DNA of 64,000 nt from an uncultured Acidobacteriota bacterium. GTDB lineage: Bacteria; Acidobacteriota; Vicinamibacteria; Marinacidobacterales; DATDRI01. Under the pieces are notes generated by a model. That model did not search any database and had not been told where the DNA came from. It saw only the letters and a list, made by a program, of their open reading frames with translations. The translations under genes were made by a program, and so were the position numbers. The stretch's first letter is position 1. Each line of letters starts with the position of its first letter. This document shows, piece after piece, positions 27,328 to 50,489 of the stretch. Location: assembly GCA_963722765.1 (NCBI GenBank), contig CAVROO010000025.1, positions 104,378-168,377 on the forward strand, read 5' to 3'.

Positions 27328-28743
27328 CTAATTCTTCGAGGCCGCGGCACTCGAGCTCGAATTGTTCTGCTGGGCCTGCTTTCGGAAAGTTTCCGGTTGG
27401 ATTCCGTACTTTTTCATCACGTCGTAGAAATCCTTCCGGTCCTTCTTGGCAAGCCGTGCCGCCTGCGAGATGTTGCCCTGGCAGATGCGGAGCACCTGCG
27501 AAATGTACTCCTTCTCGAACTCCCGCTTCGCCTCCTTGAAGGACTGGAACTTGTTCGATGAAACGGGCACGTGGAAAAACAGGTCCTCGGCGGTGATGAC
27601 GTTGTTACGCGTCAGCACCATGGCTTGCTTGACTTTGTTTTTGAGCTCGCGGACGTTGCCCGGCCACTGATAGGTCATCATTTTTTGGATGGCCGCCGGT
27701 GAGAAACCCTCTACCTTCTTTCCCAGCTCCTTGTTGAAATCGTTGAGAAAGTGGTTGATAAGGAGCGGAATATCCTCCTTGCGCTCCCGCAGGGGAGGAA
27801 TGTGGATAGGGATAACGTTCAAGCGGTAGAAGAGATCCTCGCGGAACGATTTTTCGGCAATGGCCTGGATCAAATCCTTGTTCGTGGCGGCGATGACGCG
27901 CACATCCACTTTGATGGGTTTGGTGGAGCCGATGCGCTTGAACTCGCCGTCCTGGAGCACCCTTAGAAACTTGACCTGAAGCGGCAAGGGCAACTCGCCG
28001 ATCTCGTCCAGGAACAAGGTTCCACAGTGGGCTTCTTCGAAAAGTCCTTTCTGATCGGTCCGAGCGTCCGTATAAGCTCCCTTGACGTGTCCGAAGAGCT
28101 CGTTCTCGATGAGGTTCTCCGGGATAGCACCGCAATTCTCAACGATAAAGGGCTTGTCGGCTCGCTTGCCTGTGTAATGGATGGCCCTCGCGACGAGCTC
28201 TTTCCCGGTGCCCGATTCACCATAGATGATGACCGGTACATCGTTCTGAGCCACGATGGAGATTTGCGTCAGGAGCTCTTCGATTTTCGGGCAAGATCCG
28301 ACGATGAAGTCGGATTTGCGCCGGGTCATAATCCTCGAACGGACCTGCTTTACCTCGGTGGTGGTGCGGTGCTTGTCGAGGGCCCGTTTGACGCGGCCCA
28401 TGAGCTCTTCGACGTCGAAGGGCTTAGTGACGTAGTGGAATACGCCCTCCTGCATGAGCTGGACCGCATCATTCACCTCACCGTATGCGGTCATGACGAT
28501 GACGGGAATCTCGGGATTGAACTTGGCTACGGCCCGTGCCAGCTCGTCGCCCCGAAGTCGAGGCATCTTCAGATCCGTGATGACGAGATTGAAGACCTCC
28601 TGGCGAATCAGGTTGATCCCCTCTTCACCATTGGCGGCGGTCACGACACTGTAGCCTTCTCGCTCGAGACGGTGTCGCAGCATTCGGAGCATGCTGGCGT
28701 CGTCATCCACAATTAGCACTTGTGGCCCTGAGGGCTCCTTCAT
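27328..28743 (-). CDS. sigma-54-dependent response regulator (NtrC-family EBP: REC + AAA+ + Fis-type HTH)
   Basis: Likely start MKEPSGPQVLIVDDD (28743). REC with D in VITDLKMP, Walker A GESGTGKE, Walker B TLFLDEIGE, sigma-54 contact loop present as GAYTDA, WPGNVREL, C-terminal HTH GNISQAARLAKKDRKDFYDVMKKYGI. Confidence 0.9.
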   Translation of the reverse strand: MKEPSGPQVLIVDDDASMLRMLRHRLEREGYSVVTAANGEEGINLIRQEVFNLVITDLKMPRLRGDELARAVAKFNPEIPVIVMTAYGEVNDAVQLMQEGVFHYVTKPFDVEELMGRVKRALDKHRTTTEVKQVRSRIMTRRKSDFIVGSCPKIEELLTQISIVAQNDVPVIIYGESGTGKELVARAIHYTGKRADKPFIVENCGAIPENLIENELFGHVKGAYTDARTDQKGLFEEAHCGTLFLDEIGELPLPLQVKFLRVLQDGEFKRIGSTKPIKVDVRVIAATNKDLIQAIAEKSFREDLFYRLNVIPIHIPPLRERKEDIPLLINHFLNDFNKELGKKVEGFSPAAIQKMMTYQWPGNVRELKNKVKQAMVLTRNNVITAEDLFFHVPVSSNKFQSFKEAKREFEKEYISQVLRICQGNISQAARLAKKDRKDFYDVMKKYGIQPETFRKQAQQNNSSSSAAASKN

Positions 28744-28824
28744 TGCTACGGCTCCGTCGTTTTCTTTTTGGGTGTAGGGAAAATTATACACCGTTTTTTC
28801 TCCAATGGAAAGAAGGGTTTCGAC

Positions 28825-29976
28825 TCATGCTCGTCCCCTTGCCCCAATCCCGGTCCGCCAAAGTGAACGGTTCCACCGTGCGAGGGCGTGCCGACGCACC
28901 AGGTAGAGGCCTCGACGAAGGACGGAATTGCGATTAACTGCGCTTATGCCTCGTGGTTGGAGTGTTTCCGATATCAACTGATACGCATCCTTGAGGCTCG
29001 GCGTCCATGCAATACGGTTCCAAGGGGATCCGTTCACCGAATCCTCCGAGGCAGATATCAGCGACGAGATCTTCAGGTTCTTCACCCAACGTCGCAAACG
29101 ACCGGGGACCCGGGACTCGAGAGCTTCAAGAGCGCTTTGTACCTTGGCGTTGGGGAGGACCCGATGGCTGATGCCGAGTCCCGCAAAAACCAAAGGAGTG
29201 AGCCTTGGTTTCGAGGCCTGATCGAGGAAACGGTCCCAATCGAGCGCGGGAAGTTGTGCCAACAGATAGACGTCACAAGCATTGATGCCAGGTTGGCGAA
29301 GTCCGTGCTGGAAGCTTCCATGTAGACAAAGGTGGAGCAGGTGGTCCTCCGGCGAGAGCGTTCTCGCCGGTGGGGCGCCATGTCCGGTGCTCCGCGATCG
29401 CGTGAACATCGCCCCGGGATCGAGACCGAGATACCAGGGACAGCTGGTCAAGCTCGTGTGAATCTCGAGATGAGTTCCACTCTTCGAGTGTCGGAGTGAG
29501 ATGGCATGATCCGTAGTTTGGTAGAGCGTGTAGTCGAGTTTCTCCGCCAGCTTTATCGCTGCAGAGGTGTCTCGCTCGTGAATGAGGACATCCAGATCGG
29601 CCATCGGACGAAGCCCGGAACCTCCATAGAGCCAACCGACGAAAGCCGCGCCCTTTAGAAGAAGAACTGGAATGTTGGACCGATGGGCTGCCTCAATGAG
29701 CGATTCACAGTGATCGAGCAGAACGACGTTTCGCGCCAGATTCGTGTAATAGTCCGAATAGAGAGAGGACCAAACGCGTGTCGGCGGTAGCGATTCCAGT
29801 TTGGCACGCCGCGCCGACTCGTAAACGAGACCCGAGAAACGATGTTTCCGAGCGGTTCTCAATATGAAGTCCCAGTCGGCCGTTTCGAATTGGCTTCCAT
29901 CAAACCGTGGTCGGCACTTTTCGGTCAAGCCCGCTTCCACGAGCGAAAGGAGGGCCCGAATCGATGCTTCAGACAC
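28825..29976 (-). CDS. uncharacterised nucleotidyltransferase family protein (NTP_transf_5-like)
   Basis: 383-aa ORF. VLLLKGAAFVGWLYGGSGLRPMADLDVLIHERD..AIKLAEKLDY.. then HLEIH..HLLHLCLH matches the pattern I recall for PF14907 proteins. 8-nt overlap with the upstream peptidase gene. Confidence 0.65.
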   Translation of the reverse strand: MSEASIRALLSLVEAGLTEKCRPRFDGSQFETADWDFILRTARKHRFSGLVYESARRAKLESLPPTRVWSSLYSDYYTNLARNVVLLDHCESLIEAAHRSNIPVLLLKGAAFVGWLYGGSGLRPMADLDVLIHERDTSAAIKLAEKLDYTLYQTTDHAISLRHSKSGTHLEIHTSLTSCPWYLGLDPGAMFTRSRSTGHGAPPARTLSPEDHLLHLCLHGSFQHGLRQPGINACDVYLLAQLPALDWDRFLDQASKPRLTPLVFAGLGISHRVLPNAKVQSALEALESRVPGRLRRWVKNLKISSLISASEDSVNGSPWNRIAWTPSLKDAYQLISETLQPRGISAVNRNSVLRRGLYLVRRHALARWNRSLWRTGIGARGRA

Positions 29977-30430
29977 GGGATGCTCCTTGTGAGGCGGCTT
30001 GCCCCAGCCAATGTCGCATGGTCGATTTCATTCTCACCAGTCGAGGGTAGAGATTGCTCATACGCAGGCCGAGCCAACGGGAAAAACCAGTGTCTGTGAG
30101 AATCGGGACCGGTCCTTCGACTCGAACCACCCTGCCCAATATTTGGTCTGGTCTCCGTGGGCCGTCGAAAGTGGCGCACGAATCCCCTTTTGCGAGGATG
30201 GTTTCGGCGGATTGGGAAAGGACGCGGTGCGTGGTGAGTTTACCGTCATCCCCGCGGAAGAGCGCGATCTCTCCGACGCGCAGCGGTTCATCGACGGGAG
30301 CGACGTGCAAGAAACGCCCGCTTACCAAAAGCGGTTTCATGCTCCAGCCGGCGACCTGAATACGCACGGTTTTCCCGGAATTCAGTAACGCGGCCACGAG
30401 CTCGGACTTATCGCTATTGTTTAACACCAT
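29969..30430 (-). CDS. S26B (SipW/Sec11-like) signal-peptidase-family protein
   Basis: RIQVAGWSMKPLL (GxSMxP Ser motif), LTTHRVL (His motif), ILAKGDSCATFDGP (KGDxxxxxD). I place the start at ATG 30430 because a consensus sigma-54 promoter lies inside the longer TTG-initiated ORF (to 30505). Confidence 0.65.
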   Translation of the reverse strand: MVLNNSDKSELVAALLNSGKTVRIQVAGWSMKPLLVSGRFLHVAPVDEPLRVGEIALFRGDDGKLTTHRVLSQSAETILAKGDSCATFDGPRRPDQILGRVVRVEGPVPILTDTGFSRWLGLRMSNLYPRLVRMKSTMRHWLGQAASQGASRV

Positions 30431-30461
30431 TATAGAGATCCGCAGGGACAATTCCCCACTC

Positions 30462-30477
30462 TGCAAACGGCGTGCCA
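30462..30477 (-). promoter_or_regulatory. sigma-54 promoter P1 (perfect -24/-12 consensus)
   Basis: Minus strand reads TGGCACGCCGTTTGCA = TGGCACG-N4-TTGCA. GC element ~33 nt upstream of ATG 30430. Confidence 0.8.
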
Positions 30478-30498
30478 GGCGCCGAAGATCGGGGCGTC

Positions 30499-30511
30499 TA
30501 AACAATTGATA
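30499..30511 (-). promoter_or_regulatory. IHF-like site upstream of P1
   Basis: Minus strand TATCAATTGTTTA fits WATCAANNNNTTR, 22 nt upstream of the -24 element. Confidence 0.5.
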
Positions 30512-30640
30512 AATAAGGTCTTATATTCCAATGAGGGAATTCGGCAATAGGTTTGGCCCTACGTATGGGTGGAAACCCACGCGGGATGGAGCCCTAGTAT
30601 CAAATAAAAAGCCTGTCACAGGATAGCCAGACGTTGGTTG

Positions 30641-30677
30641 AAATGCCAACTTGTAAATCTTTGTATAATTGGCATTT
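30641..30677. promoter_or_regulatory. 9-bp perfect inverted repeat, candidate upstream activator site for P1
   Basis: AAATGCCAA-N19-TTGGCATTT, 165-200 nt upstream of P1. Half-sites resemble the GTGCCA-N5-TGGCAC palindrome at 50371..50387. Confidence 0.4.
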
Positions 30678-30934
30678 ATGGGTGCGATTCGTTGAAGGCG
30701 ATAGCGGCGATGGGGAGTGGCCCTGGGGGGATTTCCCAATATTCCGTCGGGAATCCCCCTCGTCTGTCGAATCTAGTGTCCTGTATCAGTAGATCGTGGC
30801 CTAAAGCTCGAGGTCATTTTGTGTCCTGGCAAGGCGTGCCGACGAAGACATATCCCGATATTTCGAGGAGGCACAACGAAGCTGGGCGCGCAAAAGGGGC
30901 CGAGATTTAGGTGACGAATTACTGACACAGGGCA

Positions 30935-31999
30935 CTAGGGCTGGGTTTGTACCACTACGAAATACGAATAGCCCGACGGCGGGCCTTCGAAGCCCAAGGT
31001 ACTGATTGCAGTGACCCTCCAGAAGTACGTGCCCGGCGGGAGATCCAGGACTCTAACCGTCGGCTCGCCGCGGACCTCGCGCTCCACGACGAGATCGAAA
31101 AAGCTCTCATCCCGAGCGATCTCTAAGCGATAACCCTGCATGTCCCCGACGGCGCTCCATTCGAAATTCTGATCGAAGGGCTCACCCCGAAAGACCTGTT
31201 CGGGCTGCGGAGCGACTAGGTTCGCGGGGGCGGATGGAAGTGATTGCGGTTCTCCGAGCGGCTCCCCGGCCCGGGAAAGCAGACCTGAGCTCGCGGGGAC
31301 CGAAATTGATTCTGTTCCTGCGTTGAGCTCTACGTTGCCGTCAAGCACTTCGAGACGGCTGACGTCTCCTGATTCCACTTTAAGCCGAAAGTCCGTTCCA
31401 CGAATAATGGTGCTGGCGGTGGGGGTCTTGACTTCGAACCGTCCACCGGTCTTTTTTTTGATACTCGACCAGATCGTCCCCTCCAAGAGCTCGAGCTGCA
31501 CCCGAACCCCGGAATCTTTGGCATCCAGTGTGGTGAGCCGAGCTCGGCCGTTGCTTCGGATCAGAACGAAACTTTTGTCTTCGAACAAGATACGGCCGCC
31601 GGATCTCCGCCAGGTCCGGATCACATCTCCTTCACGGAGAAGAAGGTTCTTGACCACGGGGATGAAGCGATGATCGAAGGATCTCCGTATTTCGGTTTCG
31701 CCGTAGAATCCCGCGATTTTGGCGAGAAACTCGTCGCTCGCAAACATGTCTCGGGTCAGCTCTAGGTGTAATCCCGAGCGCAGCAAATTGAATCGGGAAA
31801 TGTCTTCCCACTGACCCGTGATTTCCGTGTAGGTCTGAAAAACATTCTCGGGACTGGAATCAGAGTCCGTCAGAATGAGCACATACGACTCGGGAGCGGC
31901 TGAGCGATCGTTACGGGTACCCTGGGCCGAGACTCCGCTCGATAACAAGAGGCCCATTAGCGTAACCCAAACCGGACTGTGTCGCGTCAACACCGGCAA
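30935..31999 (-). CDS. secreted FecR-domain protein with C-terminal Fn3/Ig-like module
   Basis: Signal peptide (..LLLSSGVSAQG). FecR core GGRFEVKTPTASTIIRGTDFRLKVESGDVSRLEVLDGNVELN. C-terminal FEWSAVGDMQGYRLEIARDESF..PPGTYFWRVTAIS. Start TTG 31999 or GTG 31993 after AAGGAGG. Confidence 0.75.
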   Translation of the reverse strand: MPVLTRHSPVWVTLMGLLLSSGVSAQGTRNDRSAAPESYVLILTDSDSSPENVFQTYTEITGQWEDISRFNLLRSGLHLELTRDMFASDEFLAKIAGFYGETEIRRSFDHRFIPVVKNLLLREGDVIRTWRRSGGRILFEDKSFVLIRSNGRARLTTLDAKDSGVRVQLELLEGTIWSSIKKKTGGRFEVKTPTASTIIRGTDFRLKVESGDVSRLEVLDGNVELNAGTESISVPASSGLLSRAGEPLGEPQSLPSAPANLVAPQPEQVFRGEPFDQNFEWSAVGDMQGYRLEIARDESFFDLVVEREVRGEPTVRVLDLPPGTYFWRVTAISTLGFEGPPSGYSYFVVVQTQP

Positions 32000-32147
32000 A
32001 CCTCCTTAGTTAAAGCAAGGTAATAATGGCTGAACCTGGGGCTACCGCTGGAGCTGTGAGGATCAACTGGACCATTCGCATTAACCACAAGCGCAGTAGC
32101 AGGAGCACGAGCGTGAACATTCGCCCCAGGCTTCTAGTGTTGGATGG

Positions 32148-32163
32148 AGCAAATCCTTTGCCA
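32148..32163 (-). promoter_or_regulatory. sigma-54 promoter P2 (upstream of FecR-like gene)
   Basis: Minus strand TGGCAAAGGATTTGCT. GG-N10-GC spacing correct, TTGCT -12 element. ~140-150 nt upstream of the start codon. Confidence 0.6.
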
Positions 32164-32437: not shown

Positions 32438-32462
32438 AATTTCATATTGTTCTTCGCCGGCA

Positions 32463-32478
32463 TGGCATGAGGGTTGCT
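32463..32478 (+). promoter_or_regulatory. sigma-54 promoter P3 (upstream of 32525..33919)
   Basis: TGGCATGAGGGTTGCT. One mismatch to TGGCACG-N4-TTGCW, correct spacing. Predicted TSS ~36 nt before ATG 32525, which has a GAGGT Shine-Dalgarno. Confidence 0.7.
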
Positions 32479-33919: not shown

Positions 33920-33920
33920 G

Positions 33921-34265: not shown

Positions 34266-36354
34266 CTAGCTCGCGGCGGGTCTCGTGATGCGAGTCACCT
34301 TGGCTTCCGGGTCGTTCTTCTGCTGGTAGTAGCCGTAGTACCGGTGGTACGAGTCCTGCTTGGGATCGACACCGTTTAAAACGACACCGGCGAGTCGCGC
34401 CTCCGTTCGGAGAAGCGAGTTCAAACAGCGACGGGCCAGCTTACGGTTGACCATGTTGTAGCGAACGATGAGGAGCACCGTATCGACCAATTTGGACAGA
34501 AGGAGAGAGTCGGTCACCGAAGCGATAGGTGGTGTATCGACAATGATCCAGGTGTAGTGCTCACGGCACTCCTCGAGGAATTTTTTGACGGACGGGCTTC
34601 CGATGAGGGCCGGCGGATTGGGCGGTAGTTTCCCGGACGCCACGGCTTCGAGGTTGTCGAAGCGGGTTCGCTGAACAATGATGTCCAGCTTGAGCTCTCG
34701 ACCGCAATAGTCGGCCAGTCCCGGCTCACGATAGAGCCGCAATTCGCGGTGGACACAACCACGTCGGAGATCGAAATCGACCAATAAAGTAGGCTCGCCC
34801 GATTCAGCGAGAGCTTTCGCCATGTTAATGGCGGTGGTGGACTTACCTTCCTGAGGAATCGAACTAGTGACTAGGATGATGTTGCCTTGGTCACGTTGGC
34901 GATTGAAAAGGAGGCTGGTCCGAAGAGTCCGATAAGACTCGGTGATGATGCTGGCGTTGGACGCGTCGTGACGAGGCACCACTGCCAAGCAAGGTGCTCG
35001 GAGATGGGTCTCGATGTCCTCTTGCTCCTTGAGTGTGTTGTCTAAGTAGTCTCTTCCCAGCACCAATCCGCAGCCACAGGCCATCCCCAGAACGAGAGCG
35101 AGAATCATGTTCTTGGTAGGCTGGGGACTTACGGGAGACGTGGGAACGGTGGCCGCTTGTACGAAGGACACGTTGTTATTCCAGAGACTCGATGCGATGT
35201 CCGTTTCCTTGATCTTCTGGAGGATGGCTTCGTAGAGACTCTTGTTGGAAACCGCTTCGCCCCGCAGCATATCGAGTTGCACTGCCTTGCGGCTCTCCTC
35301 GATAGATTGTTGTTTTTGGTTGTTGACCGTTGCTCTCAGTTCTCTTTCTCGACGAAGCACCTGATTGTAGTCGGCCTCCAACCCTTCGACAATCTTCGCC
35401 GCCCGGGCAGCGATGGCGTCTTCGAACTGCTCAATTTGAGTCCGGCGCTTTTTTATCTCGGGGTGTCCCTCTTTGTACTTGTTCTTGAGCTGCATGAGCT
35501 CGACCTGGATGTCGGCCCTTTGCTTGGCGAGGTCTTTCACCAAAGAATCCCGACTAACTTGCGGAACGTTCTCCAAGGAGGCGCCCTTTTTTGTCAATGT
35601 GCGGATTCTGAGTCAACGTGGAGTCGAGCTCGATGCGGCGAGTTTTGGCGTCCGTGTAGGCTTCGTTCAATTTCTCGAGAGTACCCGTGGCAATGCTCCG
35701 GCTGCCTTCTGGGATGTAGATGTTTTCCCCCTCGCTGTACTCGTGGAGCTTTTCTTCCGATTGCCGAACCGCATCTTGCACGTCTCCCAGACGTTCTTGC
35801 AGCCAGCTGTAGATGTCACGCGTGGTTTGTACCTTGGCTTCGATGTTTTGATCCACGTAGACTTCGGCCAGTGTATTGGCCCAATGAGCGGCTCGCTTGG
35901 GATCCGTGTGGCTGACGCTGATTTGGGCGAGGCGGGTGTCGGGCACGGGTACGACCTCGACATGAGACACGAAGATGGCCGCCGGATCCTTTGCGCCTTT
36001 AAAAGGAGGTTCCTTGGTCAAGCTCAATTTTTCGATGACTTGCTTACCTAGAGCTTTGCTACGGATGATCCAATACTGACTTTTGTAGTAATTCTGGTAG
36101 TCGAACCAGTTGAACGCTGTGGCAGGATAAGGATTGGAGAGGGCGTTCAGGTTTTGCCCCGGCGGCTCGATCTGTACGACCGACCGAGCCTTATAGATGG
36201 GCGTCTGCATGGAAGTGGCAAGGTAACCCAGCGCGAGAGCAACCACCGTTACGGCAATGATGATGGTCTTGCCATTCCACAGAACGTTGAGCCCGTACCG
36301 GAGGTCAAATCCTTCTCCGAGGCCCGGCATCAGTTGGGTGGATTCTTCGTTCAC
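34266..36354 (-). CDS. wzc: polysaccharide co-polymerase / BY-kinase (Wzc-like), frame change ~35590 as assembled
   Basis: ORF 35554..36354 = Wzz-type N-domain with TM. ORF 34266..35597 = coiled coil, second TM, kinase domain with Walker A SSIPQEGKSTTA, LLVDFDLRR, Walker B IIVDTPP and C-terminal Tyr cluster YHRYYGYYQQ. Junction lies in an A/T homopolymer (cccttttttg). Confidence 0.85.
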
Positions 36355-36448
36355 GGTTCAAAAACTCCGTCCAATAATCTTTGCCGAGAGTCGGCCGAGG
36401 ACTTTCGTACCAAGCCGGATGCTCTCCGGTTGTCGAGCGCCCTTTTCA

Positions 36449-37360: not shown

Positions 37361-37369
37361 CTTCGTTCC

Positions 37370-40421: not shown

Positions 40422-40844
40422 CGCTCTAGTTTGGCCTCCCGTTTTCGGAGCGATTGTGTGGGATTCCCTATTGTCTGTCGGTAGTTCCCCACAGGTGTTC
40501 CTGCCGCTGACTCGCTAAGCATCAACCTCGGGTGGTTTTCTAAAAACTCCTTGTAATCAGTCACTTGCGGTGTGTTTTCCGTCCGAGTTGCCTGTGAAAG
40601 AAAACTCAGCGAAACGCTCTGCCCATGGCAGCATTTCTGGGGTATTCCTCCGTGGGCATTTCCACCCGCAGTCACCGCCGAGTATGAAAATTCCATAGCA
40701 TCGACACTCGATGCGTATTTGTCGGCTTTCCCGTCAGAGTCCTTTTTGGCTTTAACAGTCAATGGTTTAGAGTCTCCATCGATTTCGAATCGCCTTCCAG
40801 GCCATGGAAGGACCTCGACTCGATTCTCAACAAACCCAGTGTTT

Positions 40845-40860
40845 AGCAGGATTCGTTCCA
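40845..40860 (-). promoter_or_regulatory. sigma-54 promoter P4 (candidate) ahead of a ~410-nt leader and the wecA-like operon
   Basis: Minus strand TGGAACGAATCCTGCT. GG-N10-GC spacing correct, two mismatches. Closely resembles P7 (TGGAACGTCAATTGCT). Confidence 0.45.
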
Positions 40861-42136: not shown

Positions 42137-42169
42137 GCTCTGCCAACGTGCAACTGGTGTGCCATGTTC

Positions 42170-42787
42170 TCAGATCCACCGTCTAAGGAAGTAGTAAGCC
42201 AACTTCCCGTACTCCCTAAACACGATTCGGACATCCCGACGACTTGTCCACCAGCCATTCGGGCTCCAGAAGCTCGGGTTCGCGGGGCTGTTGATCAGTT
42301 TGATTTTGTCACCAAGAAATCGCCGGGCGACGAGGAACGCCCGCCGCTGATGATAGGGCGACGTCACTAGAGTCAAAGAACGAACGCCCAGTTGCTCAAA
42401 AATCGGCCGCGCGTACAAGATGGACTCCCAGGTGCTCGTGGACTTACCCTCGATAACCATTTTTTCTCTCGGCACACCGAGTCCTTGTGCGTGAGCGAGC
42501 AGACTTTTTGCGTCGTCCCCGGGGCCTGCCTCCCCACCGCAGAGAATCAGAAGGTCCGTCATTCCGTCGAGGTACAGGCGAGAGGCGTGTGCGGTACGTT
42601 CAAAATGGGGATCCCCTCCAAAAACCATGGCCGCATCTGTACGGAGGGGTGTATCGCGAACAACGAGAGCTTCAGCTGGGAGATCCCGCCAAATGACCAG
42701 ACATGGCACGACTACGACCGCGGCAATGACGGATAAGACACGCTTGCTCCGTCTACGAGACCTTCCTAGTATGAGTTTCCGACTCAT
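42170..42787 (-). CDS. DUF218 (YdcF/ElyC-like) protein
   Basis: Start ATG 42787 (MSRKLILGRS.., TM anchor). AAMVFGGDPHFERTAHASRLYLDG..LILCGGE.. and LTLVTSPYHQRRA are DUF218 hallmarks. The rest of listed ORF 42170..43180 is out-of-frame overlap with the GT gene. Confidence 0.75.
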   Translation of the reverse strand: MSRKLILGRSRRRSKRVLSVIAAVVVVPCLVIWRDLPAEALVVRDTPLRTDAAMVFGGDPHFERTAHASRLYLDGMTDLLILCGGEAGPGDDAKSLLAHAQGLGVPREKMVIEGKSTSTWESILYARPIFEQLGVRSLTLVTSPYHQRRAFLVARRFLGDKIKLINSPANPSFWSPNGWWTSRRDVRIVFREYGKLAYYFLRRWI

Positions 42788-43874
42788 CCAGCACGCCCTC
42801 CGAGACCGCGCGCGTGAAGACGTCATAGACCTTCGGCGTTGCCACGCGGGTTGAATATTCCTCCTCGACGGTTTTCCTTGCTTCGCGTCCGAAGCGTTGG
42901 CGAAGCGCTCGATTTGCAAGCAGTTGACCGAGTTTCTCAATCCAATCATCCTCGGTAACGGCGTGGAATCCGCTGATGCCATGCTTAACGATCTCGCGGT
43001 TCGCACCGACCGGTGACACCACAGGAGGGATTCCCAGGGCCATATACTGCAGCGCCTTGAGACCGCACTTTCCTCGAGACCAAGGATCATCGGGAAGTGG
43101 CATGATGCCCACGTCCAAATCAGCGAGATCTCGTACTTCGGTTTCCGACCGCCATGGACGAAACTCGACGTCCACTCCACGAACGATGGGCGCCTCCGTA
43201 CCTACGACGACCAAACGAAAGTGTTGCTTTTTTGCCAGTCGCTGCAACGCGGGAAAAACCAACTCGAGGTATTGATACGAGCTGTAACTGCCTGTCCAAC
43301 CGACTACCGGAACACCATCGGGTCGAGGTTGCCGGAGCTCAGGCCTATAGGCATTTGTGTCAATGGTGGTGGGGATGACTGTAACATCAGAGTTGTGCTG
43401 AAGGGCATAGTCTCTTAGATAGTCATTCCCAACAATGACATGACGGGCTCGTCGGCAGATGCTTTCGGTTTTTCCAAAGCATTTGAGGTAGCTCAAGTAG
43501 CTGTTGGAAGGGCTCTTGTACGGCACAAAAATAGCGTCGTCGAAGTCGTAGACGACCGGAATCCCCTGCCAGGCTATCAGAGATTCGAGGAGTGCAGGGC
43601 CGAGCAACGCCGCTTCGCGAAATAGATAAATCAAATCGAAATGGTGGGCTCTAAAGACCGAGCTCGCCTGCCTCAAACAAGCCGCAATCATGTACGATGC
43701 TTTGGTCAGCAAATGCCTCGGCCGGTAAATCACTTTTGTCAACGCAGGAAAGCTGAAAGGTGAGTAGACCAGCTCTATCCCGTAACCACGGAGTAAGGGT
43801 TCCCACTGTTCGATGCGGTACCTCTGGCCGGGATTGACATCATGCTCGCTGGGGACGAGAGCCAAGATTTTCAT
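42753..43874 (-). CDS. glycosyltransferase (GT-B, family 4-like)
   Basis: 373-aa ORF. ..VVGWTGSYSSYQYL.., FRLVVVG, ..GKCGLKALQYMALGIPPVVSPVGANREIV. Confidence 0.8.
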   Translation of the reverse strand: MKILALVPSEHDVNPGQRYRIEQWEPLLRGYGIELVYSPFSFPALTKVIYRPRHLLTKASYMIAACLRQASSVFRAHHFDLIYLFREAALLGPALLESLIAWQGIPVVYDFDDAIFVPYKSPSNSYLSYLKCFGKTESICRRARHVIVGNDYLRDYALQHNSDVTVIPTTIDTNAYRPELRQPRPDGVPVVGWTGSYSSYQYLELVFPALQRLAKKQHFRLVVVGTEAPIVRGVDVEFRPWRSETEVRDLADLDVGIMPLPDDPWSRGKCGLKALQYMALGIPPVVSPVGANREIVKHGISGFHAVTEDDWIEKLGQLLANRALRQRFGREARKTVEEEYSTRVATPKVYDVFTRAVSEGVLDESETHTRKVS

Positions 43875-43880
43875 GGAAGA

Positions 43881-45746
43881 CTATTGGCTCCTCAACCAGA
43901 TTTCGAGTGTGAGCAGACAAAACAACTGCTGGCCGAGGTCACGGTATCCGGCCATGTGTTGATCGAGGAGACTCGAGACGGTGTCCGGTTTAACGAGCTC
44001 GAAGAGCCGTGATTTCGGGTTGCCCAACAGGTCCATGACATATGACTTCATAGGGTTTTTGAACCACACACCCAGAGGAACGCCAAAACCCATCTTGCCG
44101 CGTTTCATGATGGATTGCGGCAGCAGGTCCTTGAATGCTTCTCGCAGTATGTATTTCGTTTCGATGCCCCGTAGTTTGAATCGATCGGGTAGTCGGCAGG
44201 CAAACTCGATGAGCTTTGTGTCGAGAAAAGGAGATCGAGCTTCCAGCCCATGAGCCATCGTCGTTCGATCCATCTTGACGAGAAGATCTTCCGGAAGATA
44301 AGTACAAAAATTGAGATGGAGGAGTTGGGCCAGAGGCGTGCCGGATGATGCTTCGTCGAGAAAGATTCGGAAATGGTCACTAATGACCTGCTCATCGTCG
44401 TCCGACCTCTCTCCCATGAGTAGGTCGCTCGTCGCTTCTGGAAAGAAACTGCACCATGCCTGAATCTTTTCATTGAGCGGGAGCTCTGCCGCTTCCAGGA
44501 ATCGTTTGACCCGCCTCAGAGGATGAGACCAGCTCGACGGTTCTGGAACCAGATGAGCTAGCGACGTACCAAAACGACGTAGAAATTGAGGGAATCTCTC
44601 GGTGATGGCCGCCGCCGCAAGCCTAGAGTATCCTGCGAAGAGCTCGTCACCTCCGTCTCCGTTCAATACGACCGTTACTTGCTGGCGTGCCAAACGCGAA
44701 ACGATATAGGTCGGGATGGCGGATGAGTCACCGAAGGGGCCGTCGTGTTGATGAACGAGCACCTCGAGAAGCTCGGGGTTCGGTGGTTGGACGCGAAAAG
44801 TCGTATGCTCTGTTCCAAAATTCTTCGCCACAGTCTCAGCATATTGGGTCTCGTCATATTCGGGATGGCCGTCGAATCCGATGCTGAACGTCCGAACCGG
44901 TCGCGTCATGTGCCGGCTCATGAGCCCCACCACAATCGTGGAATCGAGCCCGCCGCTCAGAAATGCTCCGAGTGGAACGTCCGACACCAGTCGTTGGGAC
45001 ACTGCCCGATTCATGAGCTCTTTGAGGTCTTGGACTGCCTCGTCCATGCGTCGGACACCGTTGGCTAGGTAGGGTGGGCTCCAGTAGCGCTGCGACTCGA
45101 CCGTCCCGCTCGAGCTCACGCTCATGAGAGTCGCCGGCGGGAGCTTATGGACATCCCGATACGGGGTTTTCGGACCGGGGAAGTAACCGTAGGTTAGATA
45201 TAGGGGCAGAGCCTCCAGATTAGGCTCAGGTCTGATCTCAGGATGCGCTCGTAGGGCTTTGATCTCAGATGCGAAGGCAAAGCGTCGCCCGTCGTGGAAG
45301 TAAAACAGCGGCTTTTTTCCGGTTCGGTCGCGAGCGAGAATCAACTCTTCTTTGCGACCATCCCATAGGGCCAACGCAAACATTCCGTCGAGTTTGGGAA
45401 TGGCGGCCTTGCCCAGGCTCTCGTAGAGCTTCAAGACCACTTCCGTGTCGCTGCGTGTCTCGAAACGAAAGCCTTCAGTGACAAGCTCCCGTCGAAGCTC
45501 GCGGAAGTTATAAATCTCGCCGTTGAAGACCAGAGCGACAGAGCGATCATTGTTCCACATGGGTTGGTCGGCTCGGTGCGAGAGGTCGATAACTCGCAAA
45601 CGGCTGTGTCCCAAACCGACCCGTGCCGCCGAGTCTACACCGGTGCCATCGGGTCCTCGATGAGAGATGGCTTGCACCATCTTCCAGATAGCGTCCTCGT
45701 CCGAAGAGCGGTCGCTCAGTTCGAGTGTTCCCGCGATGCCACACAT
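43881..45746 (-). CDS. asnB: asparagine synthase (glutamine-hydrolysing) family amidotransferase
   Basis: 621 aa. N-terminal MCGIAG nucleophile, RGPDG, and PP-loop FLSGGLDSTIVV. Confidence 0.9.
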   Translation of the reverse strand: MCGIAGTLELSDRSSDEDAIWKMVQAISHRGPDGTGVDSAARVGLGHSRLRVIDLSHRADQPMWNNDRSVALVFNGEIYNFRELRRELVTEGFRFETRSDTEVVLKLYESLGKAAIPKLDGMFALALWDGRKEELILARDRTGKKPLFYFHDGRRFAFASEIKALRAHPEIRPEPNLEALPLYLTYGYFPGPKTPYRDVHKLPPATLMSVSSSGTVESQRYWSPPYLANGVRRMDEAVQDLKELMNRAVSQRLVSDVPLGAFLSGGLDSTIVVGLMSRHMTRPVRTFSIGFDGHPEYDETQYAETVAKNFGTEHTTFRVQPPNPELLEVLVHQHDGPFGDSSAIPTYIVSRLARQQVTVVLNGDGGDELFAGYSRLAAAAITERFPQFLRRFGTSLAHLVPEPSSWSHPLRRVKRFLEAAELPLNEKIQAWCSFFPEATSDLLMGERSDDDEQVISDHFRIFLDEASSGTPLAQLLHLNFCTYLPEDLLVKMDRTTMAHGLEARSPFLDTKLIEFACRLPDRFKLRGIETKYILREAFKDLLPQSIMKRGKMGFGVPLGVWFKNPMKSYVMDLLGNPKSRLFELVKPDTVSSLLDQHMAGYRDLGQQLFCLLTLEIWLRSQ

Positions 45747-47023
45747 CGTTCTAATGATCCTCCCGCCGTTTTTCCATCTGAATGCTTTCCGCCCGTGAGT
45801 TTTTGTCCTTTTAGCAAATTCGCATATACAGATAGATACCGGGAACCTGCTATCCCGAGGCCGAGTCTTTTCTCCGCAACGTTCCGGCAGCTCCGACGCA
45901 TTTCTTCGGAGGGTGGTAGCATCCGAGCCGCCTCCGCAGCTTTGTTTTGGATTTCGTCATCGGAAAAGTCTTGTAGCAGTAGAGCGACATTCTTTTGGTC
46001 GAGAGTCTCCTCCACGTCGCCCACTCCTGTATTCGTAACGACCGGTACTCCGGCAGCTAAAAACTCCCCGAGTTTTGTGAAACTGGATGCCTGAGCAGCA
46101 TAGGTAGGTCGTAGGAAGAAGATGCCGAGTTGGAAGAGACGAAGCCAGGTTGGTATTTCATCGGGTGTCGCGCTGGTGACCACCAAATCGGTCGGCTCAA
46201 TGCCCTGTTCTTTGGCGAGCCGATACACTTCCGCTGGCTCTTGGCGCGTAATAAAAACGAACCTTAGCTCCTTTTTGAATTTCTTTAGGGCCGCATAGAA
46301 GCGAAAGATATCTTTGACGAGATAGCGATTGTTCACAGCTCCAATGTTGCCTACGACCACCTTTCCTACCAATCCGAAGCGCTCAACGAGCTCGATACCG
46401 TTACCCTCAGGAAGAAAACGACGAAGGTCTACACAGCATGGTATGACTTCGATCTGGTCTGAACCGGCCGTGAGTCTCGAATCTTCCAGCATGATTTTCC
46501 GGGCGCGATTCGTAAGAACGACGATTTGGTCGGCGTTGCGGACAAAAATGGATTCCAACCACTTAGCTGAACGAAACAAGATACCGCCGGGTGAAAAGAT
46601 ACCCAGTTCCACGCGTTCTTCGGGCCAGAAACCACGCATGTCGAAAAGAAACTTGGCTCCAACGAAAAACTTCACCGGCAAGGACATGCAAGCTGGGACG
46701 TAGCTTCGGGCGTGGACGAGTCGAACCCGGCCGGCGCGAGCTATTCTCAGTGCTTTCCAAGAACCGACCAAGATGTCAAAAACGGTGGATCCCACTTTTG
46801 GCCGGTTGTGATAAGGCAGGCGTGTCCAGCGGATGTCGGCTGAGGCCAGTTCCTTTTCGACTTGGTTGATCTGGTCCCCGTTGGCCAAATCGGTGGTTTT
46901 TTCAAACGAAAGAACTTCGATCGAGACGCTGCGTTTTGCGATTTCAACCAGATAGGGGACTATCTGCGACCGGCCCAAGGGTTCCATCAACCCGTCATAG
47001 GAAATGTAGAGCGCATTTGCCAT
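45716..47023 (-). CDS. glycosyltransferase (GT-B)
   Basis: Start MANALYISYDGLMEPLGRSQIVPYL (ATG 47023). ..LVHARSY.., ..SFTKLGEFLAAGVPVVTNTGVGD. Confidence 0.8.
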   Translation of the reverse strand: MANALYISYDGLMEPLGRSQIVPYLVEIAKRSVSIEVLSFEKTTDLANGDQINQVEKELASADIRWTRLPYHNRPKVGSTVFDILVGSWKALRIARAGRVRLVHARSYVPACMSLPVKFFVGAKFLFDMRGFWPEERVELGIFSPGGILFRSAKWLESIFVRNADQIVVLTNRARKIMLEDSRLTAGSDQIEVIPCCVDLRRFLPEGNGIELVERFGLVGKVVVGNIGAVNNRYLVKDIFRFYAALKKFKKELRFVFITRQEPAEVYRLAKEQGIEPTDLVVTSATPDEIPTWLRLFQLGIFFLRPTYAAQASSFTKLGEFLAAGVPVVTNTGVGDVEETLDQKNVALLLQDFSDDEIQNKAAEAARMLPPSEEMRRSCRNVAEKRLGLGIAGSRYLSVYANLLKGQKLTGGKHSDGKTAGGSLERCVASREHSN

Positions 47024-47039
47024 TGGACCGACATGTCGC

Positions 47040-47804
47040 CTAAATGGCTTTTTTCCGACACAGGAAATTGGGAACGTCCATCTGACGGTCCGCACCTATG
47101 TCGTCTGGGAGATCGTTCCGCGTTTTACGTCGTAGGAGACGAAGGTTGTTTTCACTCAAAGGCTTCAAGATACAGGCTGGATTCCCGCCGATCAGGCGTC
47201 CTCCCTCGGGTGTCGCGTTGATAACGACGGAGCCGAGAGCGACTATGCAATACGAGGGAATTCGGGTACCTGGGGCCATTCGAACGTCCGATCCCATGTA
47301 GACGAAGTCTCCAATAGAGATGGGGCGGGTCCATTGACGGCTGTGGGTCCAGATCGAAGAATGCCGACCCCCGATAATGCTACGGCAACCTACGGTGACC
47401 TCGTCGGTGAAATCGATCCAGTGTCCCGTCGTAACGACGCTCCCAGCTCCCAACTTGAATTCCGGTAGGATCGATGTCTCCACATCGGGTTCCAGGATGG
47501 AGTTTATGACGTTCGTCCTTATGATCTCGGAGTATCGTCCGAGGTGAATGAGGTCGCCACCTCGAAAAAGATTGGCGTGTCCGATACGAACGTGGTCGTC
47601 GACGATCAAATTTTTCGTTTTGTAGAAGACGTTCAAATGTCCTATTCGTGTGTCGTTTGCGATGCGACACTTTTCGACGAGGATTATCGACCATCCAATA
47701 CGAACATCACGACCGATCTCGTACCCGCAAATCAGGCGGTAGAAAGGATTTTTGACCCACCAAGGGCAAACGGCCAAAAGAAGATGAAGTAGAAAGCTAA
47801 GCAT
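47040..47804 (-). CDS. left-handed beta-helix (hexapeptide repeat) acyl/acetyltransferase
   Basis: 254-aa ORF with repeated [LIV]G-x4 hexapeptides (IGRDVRIGWSIIL.., RIGHLNVF.., VRIGHANLF.., IGDFVYMGSDVRMAPGTRI). Confidence 0.75.
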   Translation of the reverse strand: MLSFLLHLLLAVCPWWVKNPFYRLICGYEIGRDVRIGWSIILVEKCRIANDTRIGHLNVFYKTKNLIVDDHVRIGHANLFRGGDLIHLGRYSEIIRTNVINSILEPDVETSILPEFKLGAGSVVTTGHWIDFTDEVTVGCRSIIGGRHSSIWTHSRQWTRPISIGDFVYMGSDVRMAPGTRIPSYCIVALGSVVINATPEGGRLIGGNPACILKPLSENNLRLLRRKTRNDLPDDIGADRQMDVPNFLCRKKAI

Positions 47805-47820
47805 GGTTATTCACCAGACA

Positions 47821-47836
47821 AGCAACCGACGTGCCA
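47821..47836 (-). promoter_or_regulatory. sigma-54 promoter P5 (perfect consensus)
   Basis: Minus strand TGGCACGTCGGTTGCT = TGGCACG-N4-TTGCT, in the 91-nt gap between the polymerase-like and acetyltransferase genes. Confidence 0.75.
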
Positions 47837-47895: not shown

Positions 47896-49170
47896 TTATA
47901 CCGCTAAGCCCTTTCGTTCCAGGCTGAGTATGTTCTCCCTATCCGGCTGCTCCTTTGACCTCGTTTTTTTCATTCCGTCCGCAACAAACAGGAAGAAGAA
48001 CATCATGATCTGGGTCCGTTGACGATACGCCGCCCCAGCATTGCTCTGAAAGACGCCGTAGGCCAAGGTCAGGCTCGTTGTGAAGATCAAAATGGGCATT
48101 GTCTTCGACAAGCGGTATCTCACGGCTGAGAAAAGTCCCCGGATTAGTGCTGGGACCATTAGATACCATACGAGAACGTCGGGAATCGCCAGAAGCTGCC
48201 GAATACTTCGCGCGGCCCACGGGAAAGGGCTGAAGAGCAGATAGACCACGCCGGTGGGGAGTACTTGTAGGGCACCGGCGGGTGTTGAAACATCGGCATT
48301 GGCGAGGTAGCCGCTTCTATGGTCAGCGAGATCCGACCGCGAGACTTGCAGCTGCGAAAGGCTAAAGTAACGTTGCTGTTGAAGGGCCTCTTTGCCAAGA
48401 GGAGTGAATAGGAGTAGGACTACAATGCCCGCTATTAAGGTGAGATGCGTTAGTAGTCCCATAATGTGTTGACGAAACTGGCCAAACACAAAGCCTAGAA
48501 GGCTTGCCGCCACAACAGCGTAGAAGATATAGAATCGAAGAAAGAGCAACCCGATTGCACTGCCAAGATATAAAAACAAGGAATAGTTGGTAAACGTCTT
48601 TCTTAGTTGCAGGGTCGCGAGCAAATGTACCGCGATACAAAGCATAACCGAGGGATCTTTGTACAGACCAGAAGACCAAAAAATCATCTGAGGAAAAAAA
48701 GCTGTGAAAATCATGGCACGAACAGCAACTTCTTTGTTGTAGATTATGAGCCCCATTTCGAGGACGCAGATTGCGGTCAGTGAGCCAATAATGCCGTTGA
48801 TGAACTGCACAAGAAGTACGTTTCGTCCGAACAGGTAGTAGATGCTAGCGACGAAGTAAATGAATCCTTTGTTGGTTTTGCCCTCCATGGTCGTGGTCCA
48901 CGATTCAAGACTTAGGTTCTGAGACCAGCCCTCCGCGATCGCAGCACCTATGCTGTCGTAGGTTTGCGAGTCGCCCCAAAACATCCGGCTGAAGCCTGGA
49001 TCGCCATGATTCATCCAAAGGTACACCGCGAGAATGTATCGAAGCGAGACCGTGCCCACATAGGCAAAGGCCACGGGTCGGTAGAGTTCGGGATCGTGTC
49101 GTTTCTGCAATACGATCAAAATGATCGCGTTAATGATGGTTGCTACTAAAACGGCAACAGCTATTTCCAC
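47896..49170 (-). CDS. polytopic membrane protein, polysaccharide polymerase-like (Wzy/GT-C-like)
   Basis: 424-aa ORF with ~10-12 hydrophobic segments and a large loop (..LSQLQVSRSDLADHRSGYLANADVSTPAGALQ..). Lower GC than neighbours. Family assignment by context only. Confidence 0.5.
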   Translation of the reverse strand: MEIAVAVLVATIINAIILIVLQKRHDPELYRPVAFAYVGTVSLRYILAVYLWMNHGDPGFSRMFWGDSQTYDSIGAAIAEGWSQNLSLESWTTTMEGKTNKGFIYFVASIYYLFGRNVLLVQFINGIIGSLTAICVLEMGLIIYNKEVAVRAMIFTAFFPQMIFWSSGLYKDPSVMLCIAVHLLATLQLRKTFTNYSLFLYLGSAIGLLFLRFYIFYAVVAASLLGFVFGQFRQHIMGLLTHLTLIAGIVVLLLFTPLGKEALQQQRYFSLSQLQVSRSDLADHRSGYLANADVSTPAGALQVLPTGVVYLLFSPFPWAARSIRQLLAIPDVLVWYLMVPALIRGLFSAVRYRLSKTMPILIFTTSLTLAYGVFQSNAGAAYRQRTQIMMFFFLFVADGMKKTRSKEQPDRENILSLERKGLAV

Positions 49171-49271: not shown

Positions 49272-49287
49272 TGCAAGAGACGTACCA
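49272..49287 (-). promoter_or_regulatory. sigma-54 promoter P6
   Basis: Minus strand TGGTACGTCTCTTGCA. One mismatch (C4 to T), correct spacing, TTGCA -12. ~90-nt leader to ATG 49170. Confidence 0.6.
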
Positions 49288-49541
49288 CGAGCGGGACTAC
49301 GTTTCGGTCAAGAACTTTTGATACGACATGGACAACTTTGTGGGAATTTCCCTACGCTCGTCAATAAGCAGCGTGTGACATCTCGTTTTGTGACCATATA
49401 ATTGTTCAGTTTCTTGAGCTCTTGTGGGCTCGGCAGCGGCTCGAGACGCGTTGGCAGTGGGAAATTGGGACTCGAGGCTAGGACCGTGGTTTCAAATGCT
49501 TTTGAGTCAGGCGCGGCTCGAGATATGCGGATTTGTTTCGA

Positions 49542-50273
49542 CTATCCGGCTACAAAACTAACCAGATCTCCCCAGTGGACGTCGGGCACGGGAACATACG
49601 GAGAAAAGAAACGTCCGTGTCTCGAGTACAAGCCGTAGACATGGACAAAGGGACTTTGAAAGATGGGGTCCGGTGAAGGGGCCCGGGAGTCGCCCCAGAG
49701 GATATTTCGAGCCCCGAGGATCTGGATCGTAGACACGGAAATCGGATCGAGATTGTGGTCGATGGACAACCACAACCGGTTCGAATCCACGAGCAGCCAT
49801 CCCTTGGACGTACTAACCTCGCTCAAAGCATGCGAAGGAATCCCCGGCACGGCCAGGACCAGCCAAGGTACTCGTAGCCCATCCGCACTATAAACGGATA
49901 CATGTCGAACCTGGAAACCGTTGGAAATGAGTATCTTCTCAATCACCCAGCTTCGGTCGAAACACAAACCGTGTCGCGCTAGGTAGAGGTCCCTGGGCTC
50001 TCTGCTGCTCCCGTAGGGAATTTTCTTGTTCGTAGGGGCTGCGGCGAGAACCGAGCTCTGCACTTCGGCAACAAATTCGATTTGCTCCATATATGAAAGG
50101 CGCTCGAAGGTCTCGCGTTGTGGTTTTCGCTCTGTGATTAGTTCTATATAGTGGCGATCCTCCTCCGTGATACGTCGCTCAACCGCACTCATGAGGTAAA
50201 GGGTCAAACCACCGCTTGGCAAGAAGACCAACAGCATGGAGAGCATTGCGAAACGTCGGCGTCGCTTCTTCAT
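49542..50273 (-). CDS. membrane-anchored transglutaminase-like (BTLCP-like) cysteine peptidase-fold protein
   Basis: Start moved to MKKRRRRFAMLSMLLVF (ATG 50273) because P7 abuts the longer ORF. Candidate Cys-His-Asp: HGLCFDRSWVIEKIL..GF.VRHV, ..PSHALSEVSTSKGWLLVDSN. Confidence 0.5.
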   Translation of the reverse strand: MKKRRRRFAMLSMLLVFLPSGGLTLYLMSAVERRITEEDRHYIELITERKPQRETFERLSYMEQIEFVAEVQSSVLAAAPTNKKIPYGSSREPRDLYLARHGLCFDRSWVIEKILISNGFQVRHVSVYSADGLRVPWLVLAVPGIPSHALSEVSTSKGWLLVDSNRLWLSIDHNLDPISVSTIQILGARNILWGDSRAPSPDPIFQSPFVHVYGLYSRHGRFFSPYVPVPDVHWGDLVSFVAG

Positions 50274-50312
50274 ATTCAGGACTCGCCTTGATCCTTCTGT
50301 GTCTTGATCCAA

Positions 50313-50328
50313 AGCAATTGACGTTCCA
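50313..50328 (-). promoter_or_regulatory. sigma-54 promoter P7
   Basis: Minus strand TGGAACGTCAATTGCT. One mismatch, correct spacing. ~29-nt leader to ATG 50273. Confidence 0.6.
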
Positions 50329-50370
50329 AAACGTCACAATACACGGGATCTATTCTGCTTCCGACAGGCT

Positions 50371-50387
50371 GTGCCATTTATTGGCAC
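50371..50387. promoter_or_regulatory. palindrome GTGCCA-N5-TGGCAC between divergent P7 and P8 (candidate EBP site)
   Basis: gtgccatttattggcac. 6-bp perfect arms. ~45 nt upstream of P7 and ~90 nt upstream of P8. Confidence 0.45.
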
Positions 50388-50473
50388 TCTTGATGTGGGC
50401 AAGTACCTACATAGAAAACAAACGACTGTAGGCAAAAGCCTGCGGAGTAACGATATCGGCCGGATATCGAGGG

Positions 50474-50489
50474 TGGCACCGCTTGTGCA
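50474..50489 (+). promoter_or_regulatory. sigma-54 promoter P8 (plus-strand EPS operon)
   Basis: TGGCACCGCTTGTGCA. TGGCAC -24 element, GG-N10-GC spacing correct, GTGCA at -12. ~23 nt upstream of ATG 50512. Confidence 0.6.

Follow-up and report, generated by a model that had tools for sequence, protein, structure and literature searches.

A predicted sigma-54 regulon with a candidate NtrC-type activator at an exopolysaccharide locus of Vicinamibacteria

The 64-kb stretch of DNA analyzed here (the window) belongs to a Vicinamibacteria bacterium (Acidobacteriota) and includes a locus for the Wzx/Wzy-type biosynthesis and export of an exopolysaccharide (EPS), a 33-kb gene cluster at ~28.7 to 62.8 kb with a candidate activator gene at its edge. 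Nearly every unit of this locus appears to start at a sigma-54 promoter, and we consider it probable (probability roughly 0.6) that the phosphorylated enhancer-binding protein (EBP) of the locus binds a 16-bp enhancer and switches the locus on together. All results are computational. An initial annotation of this DNA had proposed eight promoters of the −24/−12 type and a self-contained system under a single EBP. Its core, that sigma-54 promoters head the EPS units and that the locus EBP is their likely activator, is supported by the conservation of orthologous sites, by an accompanying motif and by the synteny of the EBP with EPS-type genes, seen in 17 of the 19 informative genomes.

All eight 16-mers of the initial annotation were found, each in its place and on its strand: P1 (TGGCACGCCGTTTGCA, 30462..30477, minus strand, 18.9 bits), P2 (TGGCAAAGGATTTGCT, 32148..32163, minus, 15.1 bits), P3 (TGGCATGAGGGTTGCT, 32463..32478, plus, 18.1 bits), P4 (TGGAACGAATCCTGCT, 40845..40860, minus, 14.3 bits, with CTGC at −12), P5 (TGGCACGTCGGTTGCT, 47821..47836, minus, 18.6 bits), P6 (TGGTACGTCTCTTGCA, 49272..49287, minus, 17.3 bits), P7 (TGGAACGTCAATTGCT, 50313..50328, minus, 16.5 bits) and P8 (TGGCACCGCTTGTGCA, 50474..50489, plus). 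The GG and GC elements lie exactly 10 nt apart within the TGGCAC-N5-TTGCW consensus. The count of eight did not hold in full, as P8 reaches only 11.5 bits and two good sites had been overlooked. One of these, P9 (TGGCACACCAGTTGCA, 42149..42164, minus, 17.8 bits), precedes a GT4 glycosyltransferase gene, and the other, P10 (TGGCAAAGGTTTTGCT, 62456..62471, plus, 15.1 bits), is the putative promoter of a conserved small RNA (sRNA). The predicted sigma-54 regulon is larger than eight, with at least ten candidate promoters, the GT4 and sRNA promoters being the additions.

A scan of the window with a sigma-54 weight matrix gave nine sites of ≥15 bits versus 0.25±0.47 in 60 dinucleotide-preserving shuffles, a 36-fold excess. 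Simpler patterns were also overrepresented: TGG-N9-TGC occurs 48 times versus 27.3±5.5 in shuffles, and TGGCACG-N4-TTGCW with ≤2 mismatches 19 times versus 7.55±2.8. Sites of ≥14 bits are concentrated in the EPS region, with 10 between 27 and 62.8 kb versus 1 between 1 and 27 kb. Eight of the nine strongest sites fall within the 11.2% of the window outside open reading frames (ORFs) and, as had been claimed, the sites lie between genes and are aimed at the adjacent gene. Start codons are 12 to 150 nt away, P4 excepted. From the end of the 16-mer the start codon is 33 nt away for P1 (ATG at 30430), 149 nt for P2, 47 nt for P3, 102 nt for P6, ~40 nt for P7 and 24 nt for P8. For P4 the distance is 83 nt to a questionable ORF and 424 nt to the gene of the WecA-like transferase. 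Start codons follow the P5 and P9 16-mers after only about 16 to 17 and 12 nt, respectively, and because distances of 12 to 16 nt leave so little room, transcripts of the P5/P9 type may be leaderless or nearly so. Conserved N-termini were seen at such starts in the window (42136-42164 and 47804-47836, minus) and in three related loci (L084, 16605-16635; L085, 9623-9652; L086, ~5222-5253).

The units that these promoters would drive cover most functions of the locus. P1 would drive an S24/S26-like peptidase gene (29969-30430), an NTP_transf_5 nucleotidyltransferase gene (28825-29976) and, as the last gene of the operon, the EBP gene (27328..28743), all on the minus strand and assigned by Pfam. 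P2 would serve a FecR-domain protein (30935..31999, minus; Pfam and synteny) and P3 an unknown 464-aa membrane-anchored protein (32525-33919, plus). P4 would drive a long leader and then an export operon (34266..40421, minus) for a WecA-like transferase, a lipoprotein, a BBP2_2/EpsL-like porin, a Wza-like protein and a Wzc-like protein (Pfam, NCBIfam and synteny). P9 would drive the GT4 gene at 40874-42136 (minus), and P5 a sugar-modification and glycosyltransferase operon (42170..47804, minus) encoding a hexapeptide acetyltransferase, a GT4, an AsnB-like amidotransferase, another GT4 and a DUF218 protein (Pfam and NCBIfam). The predicted product of the P6 unit is a 424-aa polytopic membrane protein with weak PMT_2 similarity (47896..49170, minus), and that of P7 a membrane-anchored transglutaminase-like protein (49542..50273, minus) whose homologues carry PF01841. 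The weak P8 would drive a GT2-flippase-methyltransferase-GT9-GT4 operon (50513 to ~60062, plus), and P10 the sRNA at the locus boundary.

Most of these sites are conserved in relatives. About 20 Vicinamibacteria genomes were compared, and 19 genomes were informative for the EBP neighborhood; L084, L085 and L086 are loci fetched via the 424-aa membrane protein. The recurring gene order is EBP, NTP_transf_5, (peptidase), FecR protein/464-aa protein, Wzc, Wza, porin, lipoprotein and WecA, with NTP_transf_5 adjoining the EBP in 14 orthologous loci. A counterpart of P1 with 17.8 to 18.9 bits occurs at the same place in 13 orthologous loci, and a counterpart of P3 with 17.5 to 18.9 bits precedes the 464-aa homologue in 10 loci and scores 18.6 bits in L081, where that homologue was not detected. 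P2 recurs as TGGCARNNGAWTTGCT upstream of FecR homologues in 8 loci. TGGCA and TTGC of P1, P2 and P3 are kept in 8 to 13 species each, and the four spacer bases of P1 and P3 vary by species.

Counterparts of P4, P5, P6, P9 and P10 are spread over L003, L062, L084, L085, L086 and 15 metagenome contigs. The P4 site recurs as TGGAACGGATCCTGCT or a near variant in L003, L062, L084, L085 and L086, ~420 to 445 nt upstream of WecA where WecA is in the locus; in L010 this P4-type sequence is found upstream of the EBP gene. P5 has counterparts of 18.6 bits located 13 to 14 nt ahead of GT4 genes in L085 and L086, P6 has matches ahead of the orthologous gene, with 16.7 bits in L084 and 18.6 bits in L085, and P9 is matched in L084 at an equal position, with the same 12-nt spacing to a conserved ATG and a conserved protein N-terminus. 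P7 and P8 draw their support from the window; the nearest P7-gene homologues sit on short contigs or come without stored DNA. When 15 orthologous loci are taken together, the EPS side of the EBP has 41 sites of ≥14 bits per 150 kb and the other side 2 per 136 kb.

These data bear directly on the view that the matches are products of chance or composition. In its favor are a 14.9-bit match at 34345, which lies within a coding region on the wrong strand and fits the ~1.4 chance matches expected at ≥13 bits, the low score of P8 and the approximate nature of the matrix, the weights of which were set to follow the published consensus. With the 36-fold excess at ≥15 bits set against these points, and with almost all such sites intergenic, correctly oriented and conserved where the surrounding DNA has diverged, a chance origin is hardly credible.

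A second signal accompanies the promoters. A Gibbs sampler trained solely on the P1-upstream and P2/P3 regions of other genomes yielded a single 16-mer, GTRGGGWTTTCCCCYC, whose palindromic core is GGGAAAWCCC. In the window, the top matches to the resulting matrix are all neighbors of sigma-54 sites, among them P6, P7/P8 and P10, none of whose regions had entered the training set. The motif is found 50 to 270 nt upstream of P1, P2/P3, P6, P7/P8 and the sRNA promoter and is often paired, with copies 20 to 45 nt apart. In loci that were not used for training, it lies within −300 to −20 at 29 of 41 sigma-54 sites versus 7.4% of random windows, a comparison whose nominal p-value overstates independence because many of the 41 sites are homologous sRNA promoters. 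The initial annotation had suggested other palindromes, at 30641-30677 and 50371-50387, as EBP sites; in 13 orthologous regions upstream of P1, nothing corresponds to the first of these, and the 16-mer appears to be the better enhancer candidate. A hand-curated motif alignment was abandoned for the sampler, and GGGGAWTCCC, the short core taken by itself, showed no significant enrichment (22 hits versus 13.8 expected), so that only the 16-mer matrix together with position is informative.

Upstream of P1, two copies of the motif (16.9 and 15.8 bits) stand 21 nt apart at 30725..30761, ~250 to 270 nt from the promoter, with counterparts in other species, and a weaker proximal enhancer-like site (GTGGGTTTCCACCCAT, 30565..30580, 10.1 bits) lies ~90 nt upstream in a conserved block. 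A single 17.3-bit copy between the divergent P2 and P3 (32251..32266) is 87 nt from P2 and 196 nt from P3, and it is found 65 to 100 nt upstream of P2 in 10 of 10 aligned species. The best match of the window (GTGGGAATTTCCCTAC, 49340..49355, 17.5 bits) is 52 nt upstream of P6, and copies also precede the P6 counterparts in L084 and L085. Two enhancer-like sites of 12.7 and 12.2 bits occupy the interval between the divergent P7 and P8 (50395..50443). The pair upstream of the sRNA promoter (62279..62336) scores 10.4 and 9.4 bits in the window and 13 to 17.5 bits in relatives.

The block 60 to 110 nt upstream of P1 (30530-30585, minus), which reads TTCCACCCAnnnGTRGG...CCCATTGG...CCCAT, is conserved in 13 species. 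It shows internal complementarity in addition to the weak enhancer-like site, and in the window it is followed by an IHF-like sequence (TATCAATTGTTTA).

The only EBP in the window, as the initial annotation had recognized, is the NtrC-type response regulator at 27328-28743 (minus). It combines a REC domain (PF00072, 1.8e-30) containing the phospho-acceptor Asp with a sigma-54 AAA+ domain (PF00158, 1.9e-70), PF25601 and an HTH_8 domain (PF02954, 2.3e-06), and thus possesses the domains required of a response-regulator EBP. Its best solved relative, NtrC1 of A. aeolicus (4l4u), aligns with it end to end. The L1 loop reads GAYTDA in 89 of 89 orthologues checked. Among known EBPs, substitutions in the GAFTGA loop, which contacts sigma-54, include F3 to Y in TouR and G5 to D in FlgR (PMC3162934), and the loop is plausible because each substitution is known singly. 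The orthologues form a tight group with 84 to 95% identity, in Acidobacteriota named Vicinamibacteria or “Ca. Marinacidobacterales”, and the next relatives are <60% identical. The EBP is the sole DNA-binding protein found among the annotated genes of the conserved locus.

A sigma-70-like promoter lies directly upstream of the EBP ATG (28760..28800, minus), with the form TTCACT-17 nt-TATAAT in relatives. The element varies hardly at all in 12 of 13 orthologous loci compared, loci without adjoining EPS genes among them (the slice of L017 is out of register), and its −10 region overlaps a half-copy of the enhancer motif (GTATAATTTTCCCTAC, 28774-28789). The 5′ untranslated region of the EBP gene is also conserved. 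If the element acts as the EBP promoter, synthesis of the EBP would not depend on P1 alone. The combination of its own promoter and a half-motif suggests basal EBP expression and possible autoregulation, with P1 adding positive feedback.

The mechanism that we propose follows this layout. Basal EBP would be made from its sigma-70-like promoter and phosphorylated by an unlinked histidine kinase. Oligomers of the phosphorylated EBP would then bind the 16-bp palindromic enhancer copies, often paired, upstream of the promoters and, hydrolyzing ATP, would remodel the closed complexes of the sigma-54 holoenzyme. The whole locus would thereby be turned on together, and P1 would amplify EBP synthesis. 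Firing of the sites, binding of the EBP to the motif, control by phosphorylation and autoregulation are all inferred from sequence.

Several observations weigh against this reading, in addition to the approximate matrix and the weak or window-derived P7 and P8. No histidine kinase is linked to the EBP in any locus, including the called genes of L001 to L003, and Pfam and NCBIfam scans of 58 ORFs of the window revealed no histidine kinase, no second EBP and no rpoN. The absence of a kinase from the window had been noted by the initial annotation. Its description of the system as self-contained is not borne out: no kinase was found in any orthologous locus either, no rpoN lies in the window and the EBP has a conserved sigma-70-like promoter of its own. 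In 2 of the 19 informative genomes (L009 and L014), the EBP is away from EPS genes, and an IS1595 transposase lies beside it in L001 and L014. The neighbors of the EBP in orthologous loci are just 36 to 67% identical, and its own identity of 87 to 95%, far above theirs, could mean a broader housekeeping role. Any of the other EBPs encoded in these genomes, one of which lies at a distance of 10 kb in L001 and L011, could bind the motif. The statistic that associates motif and promoters counts related sequences. In the window, the 300 nt upstream of P5, P9 and P4 are free of motifs of ≥11 bits, and the motif copies of P4 lie downstream of the promoter.

Some of these observations would fit an arrangement in which the sigma-54 promoters are real and the motif is bound by another protein, either an unlinked EBP or some distinct repressor or architectural factor, with the locus EBP regulating only its own operon or unrelated targets. 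The strong conservation of the EBP relative to its locus, its separation from EPS genes in two genomes, the nearby EBPs of two others and the unorthodox placement of motif copies, which lie downstream of P4 and upstream of the sigma-70-like promoter of the Wzy-like gene and so depart from classic enhancer geometry, all point that way. We nevertheless regard this arrangement as unlikely, since no second DNA-binding protein was found among the conserved-locus genes, the half-motif overlaps the promoter of the EBP across species and the motif and the EBP are conserved over the same clade.

Alternatively, several EBPs could integrate different signals at different promoters of a sigma-54-dependent locus, with P5, P9 and P4, for instance, using other activators. 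The lack of a nearby upstream motif at these three is consistent with such a division, as are the distinctive and conserved spacers of the P2/P10-type and P4-type promoters, unlike those of P1, P3, P5 and P6. The P5-like promoters of L085 and L086, however, have the motif 51 to 161 nt upstream, and enhancers can act over longer distances or from a neighboring unit, which makes a multiple-activator locus decidedly improbable.

The promoter of the Wzy-like (Wzy_C) gene differs from the rest. A sigma-54 site is absent there in 11 species, and a sigma-54 promoter for this gene was rejected; a conserved extended −10-like element is present instead. This element reads TGTGCTACCAT in relatives and TATGCTATGAT in the window and lies directly downstream of the enhancer pair common to the sRNA promoter, as seen in a comparison of 62125-62455 of the window with L086, L088, L089, L092, L094, L096 and L101.

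The P4 leader (40422..40844, minus) extends ~420 nt from P4 to the WecA-like gene and contains two to three enhancer-motif sites, including 40652-40667 and 40456-40492. Nucleotide blocks within it, two enhancer-like palindromes among them, are conserved across the six species aligned. The ORF at 40418-40762 was rejected as a gene: its product has 57% identity in the close relative L084 only, and no frame is conserved in distant relatives, which indicates that it is probably noncoding. Scans for riboswitches or other known RNAs in the long intergenic regions and the P4 leader gave nothing at Rfam gathering thresholds, and permissive Rfam scans of 30300-32600 and 62400-62800 gave just two subthreshold matches.

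Downstream of P10, an sRNA of ~290 nt is predicted at 62483..62770 (plus), with a conserved rod-like domain (62588-62724) followed by a 3′ hairpin and a U-run. A stretch of ~110 nt after P10 is 85 to 95% identical in species whose proteins are 50 to 70% identical, and a one-base deletion seen in one species rules out that it is coding. An extended rod is the predicted fold of the domain, with 99.2% of cells paired, and its substitutions (G-C to G-U and a few double changes) make sense on the plus strand only. Folding of the ~290-nt transcript surpasses that of 200 out of 200 shuffles (z = −3.0). With a covariance model, a single copy was located in the window (62588-62724); in relatives the copies are always beside DUF2090. 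A pattern scan of metagenome contigs added 15 more loci, and at every locus a sigma-54 site of ≥12.8 bits is located 104 to 151 nt upstream of the RNA core. The downstream copies in the tandem arrays of L090 and L095 have no sigma-54 site of their own; tandem copies were also seen in L012. No Rfam family matches the sRNA, and a JUMPstart match at 62581-62604 (E = 1.7) is regarded as chance. A highly conserved sRNA without an Rfam family that is apparently driven by sigma-54 may be the most original item of this analysis.

In architecture, the closest known system is V. fischeri's syp locus with SypG. There too, a response-regulator EBP is encoded within a polysaccharide locus that comprises several sigma-54 operons with an upstream activating site, and control is exerted by partly unlinked kinases. 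SypG activates four sigma-54 syp operons via upstream sites and, in addition, the sigma-54-dependent sRNA gene qrr1 (PMC10162802), which parallels P10 and the sRNA described here. The SypG site (TTCTCANNNTGMDWN) is unrelated to GGGAAAWCCC, and the likeness is one of layout. Further differences are the phylum, the number of promoters (~ten here versus four), the lack of a SypF-like kinase in the locus and the GAYTDA loop.

The PrsK/PrsR/PrsT system was likewise predicted computationally, from an activator motif, a ~63-nt spacer and a −24/−12 motif (Haft et al. 2006, PMC1569441). This signature was reported in Proteobacteria only, ahead of PEP-CTERM protein genes and not of biosynthesis operons (PMC1569441). 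Both systems have an NtrC-type EBP near EPS genes, and families associated with XrtA have counterparts here (the amidotransferase, an stp2-like glycosyltransferase, the EpsL-like porin and Wza/Wzc), all below curated cutoffs. The EBP scores 407.4 bits versus a TIGR02915 cutoff of 502.6, and Prs motif 1 ends in TTTACA, whereas the motif found here is of the GGGAAAWCCC type. The scans of 58 ORFs turned up no PrsK, PrsT, exosortase or PEP-CTERM protein. Membership in the PEP-CTERM/exosortase system was rejected on the strength of these absences and subcutoff matches of the EBP and XrtA-type proteins, and the resemblance was kept.

The best NCBIfam match of the EBP is to GlrR of the GlrK/GlrR (QseE/QseF) system, and the name “GlrR” given to orthologues by JGI is a best-hit label. 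The EBP is not a GlrR equivalog because it scores 457.5 bits versus an NF011695 cutoff of 763. In Enterobacteria, GlrR is an EBP that drives the sigma-54-dependent sRNA glmY and is tied to amino-sugar and cell envelope precursor supply (PMC3162934). GlrK is lacking here, and the sRNA is unrelated to GlmY (no Rfam match). Across phyla, sigma-54 and EBPs are associated with EPS, lipopolysaccharide and envelope biosynthesis genes, as surveyed by Francke et al. (2011, PMC3162934). The main text of that survey is without Acidobacteria, and the EBP clade, motif and sRNA are not described there.

Control of this locus would be of a known type, here in an unstudied lineage. The gain is one of breadth and not of mechanism, because Vibrio, Burkholderia, Myxococcus and PEP-CTERM Proteobacteria already provide established cases of the principle. 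Soils and sediments harbor Vicinamibacteria in abundance, and metagenome-assembled genomes are the only source for the relatives found here. Literature searches found no description of gene regulation in Vicinamibacteria and nothing on sigma-54 control of polysaccharide loci in this group. A promoter and enhancer code with a single candidate activator offers a concrete, testable model for the switching on of a matrix polysaccharide and a rule by which the remaining regulon members could be predicted in metagenome-assembled genomes. A bolder proposal, tentative and somewhat short of an even chance in our estimation, is that the EBP serves as master switch for the cell surface throughout the Vicinamibacteria lineage, acting through an undescribed 16-bp palindromic enhancer on at least ten sigma-54 promoters, some of leaderless mRNAs, and through a new, almost invariant rod-shaped sRNA that would extend the regulon posttranscriptionally, as in SypG-Qrr1 and GlrR-GlmY.

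The assignment of the locus to the Wzx/Wzy pathway is based on matches to PF00953 (initiating transferase), PF01943/PF13440 (flippase), PF04932 (Wzy-like polymerase/ligase), PF02706 and PF13807 with a kinase (Wzc) and PF02563 (Wza). Genes recognized by Pfam and NCBIfam include a WecA-like initiating transferase, several GT4, GT2 and GT9 glycosyltransferases, an AsnB-like amidotransferase, an acetyltransferase and methyltransferases, together with the flippase, Wzy_C protein, Wza, Wzc and EpsL-like porin. The interval from the EBP to the DUF2090/sRNA boundary is ~34 kb in the window (28743-62764) versus ~5.5 kb in L003 (4544-10049) and L062, and the glycosyltransferase content therefore resembles a variable island between fixed regulatory ends.

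Three genes in the window are broken across frames: the Wzc-like copolymerase/tyrosine kinase gene, split in two (34266-36354, minus), a GT4 gene (54979-56149, plus) and a TonB-dependent-receptor-like gene (8057-10986, minus), the last in at least five pieces. The Wzc-like kinase is one ORF in L004 and L085. The frame splits point to long-read assembly errors or to pseudogenes. Between the pyruvate dehydrogenase genes and the EBP (25072-27208, plus) are an unknown ORF, a PD40-repeat protein gene and a MazF-type toxin gene preceded by a small ORF; the matching place in L003 is nearly empty. Outside the EPS locus, a 15.4-bit sigma-54-like site (11050-11065, minus) lies ahead of the broken-up receptor-like gene; 156 nt upstream of the site is an 11.7-bit enhancer-like motif (11222-11237), and the site is possibly a further member of the regulon.

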